From a virus (taxonomy: Duplodnaviria; Caudoviricetes), in the IMG/VR virus record IMGVR_UViG_3300005512_004360, positions 1 through 24,149 of that record: DNA of 24,149 bases. One strand, given 5' to 3'. A program made the position numbers and the translations under genes. Shown in pieces: positions 6,748 through 10,255 of this stretch (positions within the stretch are counted from its first letter, which is position 1; each line of letters begins with the position of its first letter). The notes beneath the pieces are model-generated. The model saw only the letters and a program-made list of their open reading frames with translations, was not told where the DNA came from and did not search any database.

Positions 6748-7185
6748 TCAGTTGAAGAGTTCGGGTTTGCGCTGCCGTGCCAGGTTCCATGCCCGGTCAT
6801 ACTTGCAGCCCTCGCGGTTACGGATGCCCTCCACCAGCTCGCGGCGCTCCGCCTCGCGGTTCGCCTCGGCCGTGGCGTCGTCGCCTCCCTCGGTCTTCTC
6901 GACCGGGGCAGGGGTGTTCGCACCGGCGCGGTTGTGGATCCGTTCGGCCGGAGTTTTTTCCGGCACCGGGAATGCCAGGATCTTCTCAAGTCCGCCCGCG
7001 CGGTTCTTGATCAGCTCTTCCTTCACCTCGTCGCGCTTGTCGGCGGGGATGCGGTCGGAGTAGCGGTTCATCACCGCCTCCGCTTCAGCGCCGGCCACCT
7101 GCTTCATCAGGTCGTCCAGCTTCGTCAGGATGTCGGCCTCGGTAGCCTCGGCGGACAGCCCCAGTTTCTCGGCGATTGCCTTCAT
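6748..7185 (-). CDS. Nested in-frame scaffold protein (Mu gpZ-like), internal start
   Basis: ATG 7185 (MKAIAEKLGL) is preceded by an A/C-rich tract (aaccaaaacgaagacacaaaac) like the leaders of the decoration, capsid and tube genes; Mu gene I has a nested Z. Confidence 0.65.
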   Translation of the reverse strand: MKAIAEKLGLSAEATEADILTKLDDLMKQVAGAEAEAVMNRYSDRIPADKRDEVKEELIKNRAGGLEKILAFPVPEKTPAERIHNRAGANTPAPVEKTEGGDDATAEANREAERRELVEGIRNREGCKYDRAWNLARQRKPELFN

Positions 7186-7707
7186 GTTTTGTGTCTTCGT
7201 TTTGGTTCCGTCCGCTTCCGGCGGAGTGCCGGATTCACGGTTCGAAATCGGTTTGCCGCCCCGGTTGTTAGGCCGGTTCGTGAATGCCAGACCGGCCAGC
7301 CGCAGCGGCCTCACCCGGCCGTCGCCGAGATCCTCCAGATCCTCCGGCGCGTATTCGGTCGTGAAAAATTTGTAGCGCCGGTTCTTCACCGCCGCCTCGC
7401 CCAGGTCGCTCACATCGATCCGGCCCCACAGCTCGCCGTCCCGATCCTCCAGCTCCTGGAGCCAGCCCATCGCCTCCGTCCGCTGGCTCAGGTCGTGGCT
7501 CAGATGGTCCGCATCCACCAGCAGCCCGGCCCAGTTCTCCCCGGCCTCCTCGCGCTCCGCATTGAAGCGGTTCACGATCGCCTCGCGAGCCGCCGCGTCG
7601 ATCAACTGCCGACGCCCCGGCCCCGCCGGATGCTCGCCGCTCACCTCGATCTGATACCAGCCGTCTTTCGCCGGTGCCTTGCGGTTGAAAATCGTCGCGT
7701 TCATCAT
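6748..7707 (-). CDS. Mu gpI-like prohead protease with C-terminal scaffold
   Basis: LLVDADH, EAMGW, GELWGRID, RYKFFTTEY and GLAFTNRP motifs of Mu-like proteases, followed by a helical scaffold region. Confidence 0.85.
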   Translation of the reverse strand: MMNATIFNRKAPAKDGWYQIEVSGEHPAGPGRRQLIDAAAREAIVNRFNAEREEAGENWAGLLVDADHLSHDLSQRTEAMGWLQELEDRDGELWGRIDVSDLGEAAVKNRRYKFFTTEYAPEDLEDLGDGRVRPLRLAGLAFTNRPNNRGGKPISNRESGTPPEADGTKTKTQNMKAIAEKLGLSAEATEADILTKLDDLMKQVAGAEAEAVMNRYSDRIPADKRDEVKEELIKNRAGGLEKILAFPVPEKTPAERIHNRAGANTPAPVEKTEGGDDATAEANREAERRELVEGIRNREGCKYDRAWNLARQRKPELFN

Positions 7708-8069
7708 TCGTCGTCGGTTGGTTTCTCGGTCAGCGCATCCACCATCATCATCGCCATCGCCTCCTCGAACTCCGGGTCCTCAAGAAGTCCCGCCCAGTCG
7801 ATTTCCAGCAGCGCCTTCGGATCTTCCACACCCGCTTCCAGCGCCTTGCCAAGCCGCTGCATGTTCGGTGCAGGGAGCGTGCGGGCGTCCAGCACCGCAT
7901 TCACCCGGTTCAGGATCCACCCCGCCTTGCGGTTCAGGATACCGGCGTCATCGTCGGGCTCCACGTCATCCGGGGTGGAGTCATGCAGCGCTTCCCAATC
8001 AGGAGATCCCGGCACCTGGTGGCGCTCGAAAAACTCGTCGCCCTGTTTCATGAGGTCTTCGATCTTCAT
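7704..8069 (-). CDS. Acidic 121-aa protein coupled to the portal-TopIB gene
   Basis: ATG 8069 overlaps the portal stop (ATGA) and its stop overlaps the protease start; two ILNR motifs. Confidence 0.75.
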   Translation of the reverse strand: MKIEDLMKQGDEFFERHQVPGSPDWEALHDSTPDDVEPDDDAGILNRKAGWILNRVNAVLDARTLPAPNMQRLGKALEAGVEDPKALLEIDWAGLLEDPEFEEAMAMMMVDALTEKPTDDE

Positions 8070-10255
8070 GCCGCCTTGTCGATTTTCGGTTTCTGTCCGG
8101 GCCGGTAAGGTTCGAACACCAGGGGGTGGATGTAGCTCTTCAGACTCATGTTCGCGTCGTTCCCAAGCTGGCGGCCCACCACGCGCCCCACGCGCTTTTG
8201 GAACTTCTTGAACTCCCGGTCCGTCGTCGGCAGTTCGCCACGCGCCGCGATCTTCGCCGCCGTCGCGTCCGCCAGCATCGTTCCGTTCCATGTCCGGAAA
8301 TCATGCACCTTGAACTTGTTACCGCTGATCCGCTTCAGGTAGTCGAGTGTTCCCGCCGCGTTCCCGCTGAAAATACGCTCCTCACCCGCCGCCTGCCGCG
8401 CCGCGATATGCCGCGCCAGCGTCCGGTCCTCGAAGCTGTGAAGCTGCCTCACGCCTTTCTTGCCCGTGAAGTCCAGGTGGACCTTGTCGCCATCCACCCG
8501 CGCATGCTCGGTCCGCAGATTGCTCGCGCCGAATGTCTCCACCTTGCCACCGCCGTCCTCTCCGCCATTGCGAAGCCCGGTGATCGAGATCATCCGCAGC
8601 TTCATCGCGTTGTCACGGTCCGGCCCGTCGCCCAGCATGTCCTCGTCGATCTTGGCTTGCAGCGTCGGCATCTCCTGGTGGAGCGCGCCGATCCGCGCAT
8701 ACTTCGCCGCCGCCTGCGACCTACCGTATTCCTCGGAGTAGAAGTACACCGTCTTTCCCTTCGCGTTCTTCGCCGTGCCCAGCAGGTCCGCACCCGGATC
8801 GTCCGTCACTTCCAGGTCGGTGAAAGCCGGGGCCACCTTCAACCGCTTCCGATCTTCATCCGTGCCCTTCCGCATCTCGCCGCGCTTCGCCTTCGTGCCC
8901 TTCGTCGGCGCACCGCCTGCCGTCCACCTTCCCCCGGTGTCCGATCCTTTCGGATCGCGCGGTTGCAGCGGATTGTATCTGTTCTCGATCCGCTCCTTCT
9001 CCGTGGCGTCCTTCGCGTCTTTGCGGTTCGAGTTCTCCGGTTCTTCCACCGGCGCGTCATCCAGCTCATACCCCGTCTTCTCCGCGATCCACTCGCGCCT
9101 CACCCGGTATCCGGCTTTGCTGAGGGAAGCCACATCCTTGACCACCTGCGCCGAGTCCGTCTCCTCGTTCGCCGCCAGTTCGAAATACGCCCACGCCCGC
9201 TCGCCCGGCGTCACTTGCCGCAGGATCTCCGCGTCCACCTGCGCCCGCAGGCACTCGGAAATCTCCGCCGCCTCCGCCCGCGCGATTTCCGCGAAGGTCT
9301 CGGCATGAGCGTTCCCTCCCAGCGTCCCGCTGCCGCTCTCGGCCAGCATCGTCAACTTGCCGCCGGTGCCACGCAAAACCAGTTGCTCGTCCTGATACTT
9401 CAGGTGATCGCGGAACGGATTGTTGCCCCGCGCTCCGTTGTCCACCGTCTTCACGTCCGAACCTCCCGGCAGCACGCCGCGCGCGTCGCTCACCGTCCGC
9501 TCGGCCATGTCCAGGTATTCGTCCTCCTTCTCCTTCGGCACGTTCTCCGGCATCACCAGGAACACCGCAGGGATGCCGTAGCTCTCGATGAAGCCGTCCC
9601 AGTCCTTTTGCGAAAGCCCCTTGCGCACGAAGCACACGATCGCCACCCGGTTGATCGGCCGGCTCACCTCGCGGATCACGAACCGCCCCTCCGCCACCGG
9701 CAGCCCCTTGGTCGCGCCGACCTTCGAGTCCGCGTTGTATTCCCAGCCGCCGTAAAGACCCTTCCTCACCCAGAACCACTGCTCCACCGGATCCAGCGCC
9801 ACCAACCGCCCCGCGCCATCCCACACCTTCTCCAGGTGCGTGAATCCCCGGAAGCTCGCGATCGCCAGAGCCTCGAAGGCCGCACTCAGATTACGGCATC
9901 CCTCGTAGTTCTCCCGCAGCGCTGCCTGCTGGATTTCCGCCACCCGCTTCTTGTCGTCCGGCACATCGTCCCGGACCTTGATGTCCCAGTCGAGCTGCTG
10001 GATCGCGCTGGTCCTGCGCTCCACCAGCGCTCCCAGCGTCGCGTCCTGCATTTCAATGAACCGGTAGGTCCATTGCAGATCTGCGAAAGCGCCGCGCTCG
10101 CCTTCTTCCAGCAGCGTGATCGCCCGCCGGATCGTCAGCCCGCGCAGCGGATTGTATTGGTCCCTCCACAGGTTTGCCGCCGCGATGTGAAAGCGGTATC
10201 CCGCCACCATCGCCGCGCGATTCATCAGAGACCCGAGCTTCCGCGTGAAATTCAT
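8066..10255 (-). CDS. Portal protein (Mu gp29/DUF935-like) fused to a C-terminal type IB DNA topoisomerase domain
   Basis: 729 aa from ATG 10255 (TGATG overlap with terminase). About 400 N-terminal aa carry portal motifs (DWDGFIESYGIP, GGKLT, GTLGGNAH). The C-terminal ~260 aa carry TopIB motifs: APAFTD, TGLRNG, TFGASNL, FTGKKG, HDFRTW, LGND, KSYIHP. Confidence 0.9.
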   Translation of the reverse strand: MNFTRKLGSLMNRAAMVAGYRFHIAAANLWRDQYNPLRGLTIRRAITLLEEGERGAFADLQWTYRFIEMQDATLGALVERRTSAIQQLDWDIKVRDDVPDDKKRVAEIQQAALRENYEGCRNLSAAFEALAIASFRGFTHLEKVWDGAGRLVALDPVEQWFWVRKGLYGGWEYNADSKVGATKGLPVAEGRFVIREVSRPINRVAIVCFVRKGLSQKDWDGFIESYGIPAVFLVMPENVPKEKEDEYLDMAERTVSDARGVLPGGSDVKTVDNGARGNNPFRDHLKYQDEQLVLRGTGGKLTMLAESGSGTLGGNAHAETFAEIARAEAAEISECLRAQVDAEILRQVTPGERAWAYFELAANEETDSAQVVKDVASLSKAGYRVRREWIAEKTGYELDDAPVEEPENSNRKDAKDATEKERIENRYNPLQPRDPKGSDTGGRWTAGGAPTKGTKAKRGEMRKGTDEDRKRLKVAPAFTDLEVTDDPGADLLGTAKNAKGKTVYFYSEEYGRSQAAAKYARIGALHQEMPTLQAKIDEDMLGDGPDRDNAMKLRMISITGLRNGGEDGGGKVETFGASNLRTEHARVDGDKVHLDFTGKKGVRQLHSFEDRTLARHIAARQAAGEERIFSGNAAGTLDYLKRISGNKFKVHDFRTWNGTMLADATAAKIAARGELPTTDREFKKFQKRVGRVVGRQLGNDANMSLKSYIHPLVFEPYRPGQKPKIDKAA

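Follow-up and report, generated by a model that had tools for sequence, protein, structure and literature searches.

A repeated [IVLM]xNR motif is a predicted prohead-protease code that marks the junction of a portal-fused topoisomerase in a Mu-like phage

How might a phage that carries an enzyme fused to its portal protein detach that enzyme, and where would the enzyme go? The question is raised by a 24,149-nucleotide stretch of viral DNA (IMG/VR record IMGVR_UViG_3300005512_004360; hereafter the window). This 24-kb window is one contig from a Mu-like transposable phage, and it encodes a transposase, a MuB-like ATPase, a repressor, an endolysin, TerL, a portal, a protease, a major head protein and a gp36 adaptor; its nearest named relatives belong to Luteolibacter and other Verrucomicrobia. 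A single reading frame of 729 residues (8066..10255; this and all other window features described here lie on the minus strand) joins a portal, with Portal_Mu at residues 63-395, to a topoisomerase IB (TopIB), with Topoisom_I at 514-684. We class the portal as Mu-type (PF06074) by its profile match and by the position of its gene after TerL. The tetrapeptide IENR lies at the junction of the two parts, and the same type of motif is repeated along the nearby 319-residue protease/scaffold, which resembles Mu gpI (6748..7707). On balance, we favor the reading that [ILVM]-x-N-R is the code of this gpI-type protease, that the predicted cut falls after the Asn and that it would free a 304-residue TopIB in the maturing head.

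The motif in the protease/scaffold and the portal

The protease/scaffold holds 11 NR dipeptides where 1.84 are expected, a number that 0/5000 shuffles reach, and 0/2000 shuffles show any dipeptide that extreme. Eight of the 11 take the form [IVL]xNR, against an expectation of 0.29. Two further copies stand in the 729-residue portal fusion, LMNR close to its start (10217..10228, ending at R13) and IENR (8978..8989, ending at R426, with 303 residues C-terminal of it), while a 121-residue open reading frame (ORF) at 7704..8069 contains ILNR twice (residues 44-47 and 52-55; 7905..7940), where 0.03 would be expected. An initial annotation of the window had listed these motifs, including the 11 NR and eight [IV]xNR of the protease/scaffold and the IENR Arg codon at 8980-8978, and translation and counting found every one of them where it had been placed. 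The contrast between head and early proteins that the annotation proposed as a check was also borne out: [IVL]xNR occurs 13 times in 1601 residues of head protein and three times in 2132 residues of early protein, with one copy in 2964 residues of other late protein, and homologous proteases are enriched as well. The portal taken alone shows no enrichment (NR, 4 vs 2.36 expected, p 0.20; motif, 2 vs 0.41, p 0.063), and the case for its sites is therefore one of conservation.

That conservation is extensive. We assembled a close protease set of 120 sequences (the query and 119 matches, with the identical match excluded), a distant set of 117 sequences and a portal set made up of the best 120 of 867 matches. 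NR averages 9.4 copies per close protease against 1.5 expected, and 120/120 exceed the maximum of 200 shuffles. Among orthologues from 157 loci, [IVLM]xNR occurs 578 times in 109 proteases where 25.8 are expected (about 22-fold), compared with 5 vs 11.0 in TerL (n=27, 0.46x), 8 vs 5.9 in gp36 (n=83, 1.3x), 11 vs 8.1 in MuF-like proteins (n=50, 1.4x), 0 vs 1.0 in cement proteins (n=36) and 43 vs 18.3 in the major head protein (MCP; n=107, 2.35x). Portal leaders carry NR in 115/120 homologues (23.3 expected), and the post-core linker, taken as at most 80 residues, carries it in 114/119 (23.8 expected; one short tail dropped), although these linkers are otherwise divergent. Chance or compositional bias might be invoked for the portal, which alone lacks significant enrichment, but for the protease/scaffold this explanation is already refuted by the shuffles, by the 120/120 homologues and by the absence of enrichment in proteins outside the head, and we regard it as almost certainly wrong.

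The loci were also used to ask how the motif depends on the portal tail. From the 157, 137 had both genes and 129 remained after incomplete or short scaffolds had been removed; duplicates were merged, and 26 short-tailed loci were set aside in the linker test. Where the scaffold is of the NR class and the tail is at least 60 residues long, the linker holds NR in 67/72 loci (15.4 expected), and within the first 32 tail residues NR is present in 50/91 long tails vs 1/23 short closed tails. Two points temper these numbers: the short-tailed portals mostly form one clade, and the homologues are related, so the counts measure conservation rather than independent events.

Within the protease/scaffold, six of the eight motifs are predicted sites. 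These are IFNR at the N-terminus (7681..7692), a predicted propeptide site; ISNR (7237..7248), a predicted protease/scaffold release site directly past the ordered domain, in which both N and R are found in 100% of the 120 close sequences; and four copies along the scaffold (6814..7074), namely, VMNR (7074-7063), IKNR (7011-7000), IHNR (6939-6928) and IRNR (6825-6814). The scaffold probably has an internal start at M175 (7185). The other two, IVNR (44-47) and VKNR (107-110), fall within the protease fold and are weakly conserved across the distant set, where Asn is present in 48/117 and 29/117 sequences, respectively, vs 89/117 at N8 and 105/117 at N156. For these reasons IVNR is probably not a maturation site and we rejected VKNR as one, so of the eight protease motifs that the annotation listed, six are retained as predicted sites. 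Also rejected as sites were FTNR and PNNR, which form the TNxP loop of the family; PINR of the portal, which is in the core and has Pro at P3; and the NR dipeptides of MCP, TerL and MuA.

If scaffold and portal are read by one protease, their motifs might be expected to change together, and in part they do. Portal linkers carry HR in 2/2 loci with HR scaffolds vs 2/72 in the NR class, and 2/3 NK scaffolds are paired with an NK portal tail. In a blind test, the most over-represented word of the scaffold was found in its own portal tail at 8/23 loci (permutation mean 4.3, p 0.035), and at 5/12 when only lineage representatives were used (permutation mean 1.8, p 0.013). Other results weigh against covariation: NS scaffolds match the portal tail in only 1/4 cases; the [AC]R class matches in 4/9, which is uninformative because the same pattern also matches 21/72 NR-class tails; and the blind-test loci were hand-chosen after the loci had been inspected, with 15/23 missed.

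Phage Mu itself offers a precedent. Mu gpI repeats the word AALSA, and the Mu portal gp29 carries AALSA at 427-431; MuM16-1, 3927AP2 and JBD30 have scaffold/portal pairs similar to those of Mu, and Villandry and ThpS-P1 have no clear scaffold/portal motif pair. In the cryo-electron microscopy structure of the Mu virion, gp29 lacks its last 124 residues, which the authors attribute to protease I (PMC11915804). The resulting boundary, at residue 388, is upstream of AALSA; it is compatible with a disordered linker and does not locate the cut. Given the conservation, the bracketing of cargo described below, the partial covariation and the Mu precedent, the proposal that the motif is a prohead-protease code is well supported, and from the sequences we think it very likely that the repeated motif is a protease site. 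As a separate observation, the major head protein of a distant Mu-like phage (locus L165, 9421-10500) has an N-terminal extension bearing the same Asn-Glu repeats as the scaffold of L165, unlike the MCP of the window.

The protease and the register of the predicted cut

The annotation had placed the cut after the Arg of IENR, which would split a 426-residue portal from a 303-residue cargo. To fix the register, we used the peptide that precedes the cargo. In the window, this leader is Y427-W444 (8924..8977), of the YDPxQPR / HPR type common to TopIB cargos on unrelated carriers, and a YDPxQPR or HPR leader was found before TopIB in 72/165 proteins. With 50 of 163 retrieved proteins scanned against Pfam, 17 fusions carry the cargo on Portal_Mu, seven on Phage_portal of the HK97 type and five on Phage_portal_3; it was also found on MuF and once on a Mu-like protease. 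The position at -2 from the leader is Asn in 13/13 Portal_Mu-TopIB fusions with a detected leader (17 examined), and the residue after that Asn is A in eight, R in two, D in two and G in one. The -2 position is Lys in 6/7 Phage_portal fusions, and it is Asp in 3/5 Phage_portal_3 fusions. The HK97 protease cuts after Lys.

Similar variation is seen elsewhere. In close portals, the IxN ahead of a terminal cargo leader is followed by N in six cases, S in five, A in three, R in one and G in one, and L165, which carries the same cassette as the window, has NE as its scaffold repeat and NNA at its junction. With Asn held constant at the junctions while its successor varies, the most likely P1 is Asn, and Arg would be a preferred P1'; if the motif is a protease site, we consider a cut after Asn likely. 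The annotated position is therefore probably to be moved by one residue, to IEN↓R, with a cargo of 304 residues. The predicted products would be a portal of 46.2 kDa (R13-N425), having lost residues 1-12 as well, and a cargo of 33.4 kDa (R426-A729).

Alternatively, the protease could read the same code and cut after the Arg (IENR↓Y), in which case junctions without Arg would be cut poorly or never. Arg follows [IVLM]xN in 603/688 scaffold sites and follows Asn in 101/119 first portal-tail sites, counts that also fit Arg as P1, and in some lineages Arg is retained where Asn has become His, Ala or Cys. However, the cargo junctions hold the Asn while the next residue varies, L165 keeps Asn and then has Glu, and in the other portal families it is the Asn position that Lys and Asp occupy, so we regard a cut after Arg as quite unlikely. 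Some observations sit uneasily with a cut after Asn: four of the 17 Mu-portal fusions have no detected leader, two of these four (P0252 and P0328) have a non-Asn junction by eye, and loose IxN matches occur inside the cargo itself (LRNG at a catalytic Arg), from which it follows that accessibility must matter.

Is the window protease able to cut at all? It matches PF10123 with 62.1 bits against a cut-off of 25.2, lies in the head module and also belongs to phrog_328. His68 (7504..7506), Thr143 and Asn144 are invariant in the distant set (His68 in 117/117), and His68 is presumed to be catalytic. The conserved catalytic Ser of PF10123 proteases is missing: the window has Thr116 (7360..7362) at the presumed nucleophile, where Ser is found in 116/117 distant and 118/120 close sequences, and this weighs against an active enzyme. 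We take position 116 to be the nucleophile because of its conservation and because phage prohead proteases work by a Ser/His mechanism (PMC7411985). The closest distinct homologue, P0125 (68% identical), likewise has Thr, as does no other aligned sequence, a pattern that speaks more for a tolerated change passed down by descent than for decay; an identical 5692-bp assembly (L172), possibly from the same sample, also has Thr116. Thr116 could itself serve as the nucleophile, or it could mark an enzyme that has been weakened, and judging by the sequence, the protease of this phage is probably active.

A structural model of the protease (predicted template modelling score, pTM, 0.86) is ordered to about P153, and in the full-length model residues 147-172, which include the predicted release site at N156, are disordered. 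Neither model had a Foldseek match at E 0.001, and the best TM-scores, 0.47 for the Kaposi's sarcoma-associated herpesvirus (KSHV) protease and 0.43 for T4 gp21, came with E above 0.1 and are below significance. No relative emerged when viral contigs were searched with the protease as a single query sequence.

Given the Thr, one could suppose that the motif is an uncut binding or assembly tag, mediating contact of scaffold with portal or with coat, and it would suit such a role that some copies fall in predicted scaffold helices. Yet the motif flanks the protease domain on both sides and brackets unrelated cargos, the residue that it holds fixed differs from one portal family to another and the portal tail of Mu is reported to be removed (PMC11915804). 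We consider a tag very unlikely.

The portal tail as a cargo slot and the fate of the enzyme

The annotation had further suggested that the portal C-terminus serves as a loading device, and comparison with relatives supports a cargo slot there, since the cargo is swapped among relatives and predicted sites bracket it. The nearest portal, P0004 (72% identical), which a FastTree phylogeny built from 105 sequences places as sister to the window portal, has only the linker, IRNR and a helical tail and carries no cargo. Among the best 120 portals, 48 are at least 600 residues long, and these long portals carry PBECR1/2/3 or a domain with a GHHQ motif. The conserved portal is thus followed by variable C-terminal domains: none, PBECR1/2/3, the GHHQ-motif domain or TopIB. 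Some cargos follow the helical tail, and others are inserted ahead of it and flanked by two sites; the TopIB cassette of the window is at the inserted position, but it terminates with a stop.

The GHHQ-motif domain (about 140 residues, with no Pfam match) is the commonest portal cargo and is bracketed by sites on both sides. It was assigned to 29/48 long portals by a loose pattern, one of them probably wrongly, and examples are at L006 2483-3223, L080 7359-8192 and L083 8189-9025; from its motif we presume it to be ParB-like, a match that Pfam did not give. Cargo is also found in other places. L035 (6463-7770), L099 and L145 have cargo leaders or cargos inserted in the protease/scaffold gene past the boundary site, TopIB is joined to a Mu-like protease in P0282, the portal tail of L055 (8168-9034) bears a copy of the Mu-like protease domain (PF10123, E 3e-15), and Shewanella phage MuM16-1 (L160 6214-7903) has an annotated reverse transcriptase between a neck gene and the protease.

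The cargo of the window (R426-A729; 8069..8980) is a bacterial-type TopIB with an isoelectric point of 9.8 and a net charge of +15. Its residues 45-296 align with Deinococcus TopIB (PDB 2f4q/3m4a; E 7.5e-25), and the catalytic set is intact (R562, K599, R654, N699 and Y708); among aligned TopIBs, R, K and R are present in 27/27 and Y in 26/27. The TopIB N-terminal domain PF21338 gave no Pfam match in the query, which aligns to 2f4q from residue 43, and is matched in close fusions. Leaders of several types, YDPxQPR...GGxW, HPR...GxF, CGNGxGGF and GTSEGAxKGW, follow predicted sites ahead of unrelated cargos, and such recurring leader peptides are a possible ejection or sorting signal.

Directly downstream of the cargo, as in MuF toxins, is a small ORF, the 121-residue ORF described above, and its two halves have different relatives. 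The C-terminal half is the displaced helical portal tail, 38% identical to P0004 413-485 (pairwise E 6e-5); an Atlas search with the whole ORF gave no usable match. Residues 1-40 (7950..8069) are homologous to the start of the post-TopIB ORF in L165 (E 3e-9) and make up an acidic peptide, with a net charge of -11 over residues 1-46 vs +15 for the enzyme. This peptide was found in 6/14 TopIB loci inspected (L165 6900-7049, L166 2258-2401, L169 1766-1921, L175 652-822, L180 513-662 and L181). An iterated hidden Markov model (HMM) search of 40,011 sequences gave 19 matches (15 distinct carriers), all directly after TopIB, with no match in loci without TopIB. In nine polyproteins, the peptide is in cis, with the catalytic-Tyr motif 15-25 residues ahead of it and a Lys shortly before it.

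By analogy with the putative immunity genes encoded by the small ORFs after most MuF toxins (Jamet 2017, PMC5576092), the acidic peptide is a candidate TopIB inhibitor, for which we put the chances as even. Against this role, no such peptide follows TopIB in L173 or L168, and only 9/30 proteins with long C-terminal extensions were found to have it. L174, L176 and L178 have short overlapping out-of-frame ORFs after TopIB in very large proteins; these are HMM-negative and resemble the first half of the acidic peptide.

In the mechanism that we propose, the cargo would enter the procapsid attached to the inward-facing end of the 12-subunit portal. The protease would trim itself at N8 and N156, fragment the scaffold at N214, N235, N259 and N297 and cut the portal at N12 and N425. 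The 33-kDa enzyme would remain in the head and leave it together with the DNA at ejection, as T4 Alt and the IP proteins do, and in the new host it would relax supercoiled DNA as an early takeover or counter-defense effector. In the producing cell, the acidic peptide would quiet the enzyme, and it would be split from the portal-tail domain at ILN↓R. Reasoning from known ejected proteins, we give retention in the head and ejection slightly better than an even chance.

The main rival to ejection is that the enzyme, freed or still tethered, acts in packaging, where it might relieve twist as the head fills, or else exits the procapsid and acts in the producing cell. Scaffold fragments usually exit the procapsid (PMC7411985), the fate of the removed gp29 tail of Mu is not given in the available text of PMC11915804, and a topoisomerase at the portal would be well placed for incoming DNA. 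Nonetheless, the nearest relative has no cargo and the slot holds predicted RNases elsewhere, so the cargo is no packaging necessity. Related TopIB domains also occur in MuF fusions and in polyproteins several thousand residues long, alongside InPase, ADP-ribosyltransferase and 2H domains, a setting typical of injected effectors (PMC5512222). We judge this rival to be improbable.

Building on ejection, we tentatively suggest a broader scheme, which we regard as possible rather than probable. A mobile cassette of leader, TopIB and acidic DNA-mimic inhibitor, common to many tailed phages, may be re-addressed to the resident prohead protease by a single P1 residue, Asn in Mu-like phages, Lys in those of HK97 type and Asp in those with Phage_portal_3. 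Maturation would then both unload the enzyme and part it from its inhibitor, and an armed TopIB would be injected as an anti-host or anti-defense effector.

Two neighboring features complete the picture of the window. A MuF domain is not the cargo carrier here: the portal carries the cargo, and a separate MuF-like gene (4507-3545), which has no NR, sits after the gp36 adaptor and not after the portal. An ORF at 1048-1593 contains repeated GAGSPGTPP segments, probably derived from a repeated DNA element, and several more of the window's ORFs have segments like these, of a GTPALL type.

Comparison with known systems

In the mostly open-access literature that we searched, we found no gpI cleavage motif, portal-TopIB fusion or phage TopIB inhibitor, although the architecture files of PMC5512222 may list such fusions; the available parts of PMC11445458, PMC2628397, PMC7824862, PMC8705779 and PMC12749128 added no motif. 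Our analysis makes an exact prediction of where a Mu-type prohead protease cuts, which we did not find stated there, and suggests a release route for portal-fused effectors. Two further suggestions, neither of them met with in the literature searched, are that TopIB is packaged and that a natural peptide may inhibit it. A P1 residue that can be read from sequence would allow packaged enzymes to be mapped across phage families.

Effectors fused to head proteins have been described before. PBECR and 2H domains fused to portal and MuF are reported by Iyer 2017 (PMC5512222), which assigns the release of such effectors mainly to built-in metallopeptidase domains, and the window resembles these and the MuF toxins (PMC5576092) in placing a variable C-terminal enzyme on a head protein. 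In the parts consulted, Iyer 2017 and Jamet 2017 give no prohead-protease motif, and the word topoisomerase is used once in the former, in a reference, and never in the latter, supplements excluded. With Deinococcus TopIB, the cargo of the window shares the Arg-Lys-Arg-Asn-Tyr set; unlike it, the cargo is fused to a portal behind a leader and ends about 20 residues past the catalytic Tyr, to be followed by the acidic peptide.

It is known that a single prohead protease can process scaffold and portal as well as ejected proteins by cutting at one short motif present in all of them (PMC10052503, PMC7411985). In T4 (gp21) and SPN3US (gp245), where the substrates include Alt, IPI-III and gp53/54, the shared motif has been measured, being AXE↓ with a preferred P1' Ser in SPN3US (PMC10052503), whereas the cuts in the window are predicted; the predicted IxN↓R, with its preferred P1' Arg, resembles the SPN3US site. 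The cargos of T4 and SPN3US have their own N-terminal targeting propeptide. The window cargo has none, being a C-terminal fusion for which the portal is the carrier, and its predicted P1 is Asn.

The closest parallel is Mu, in which gpI/gpZ and gp29 (gpH) correspond to the PF10123 protease, internal scaffold start and PF06074 portal of the window. As IxNR is in the window, the AALSA repeat of the Mu scaffold is copied in the portal tail. Unlike Mu, the window uses IxNR rather than ALSA, has an enzyme inserted at the tail site, has its helical tail split into the next ORF and has Thr at the presumed nucleophile. The feature is real, and it is a variation on the known processing of cargo by head proteases.

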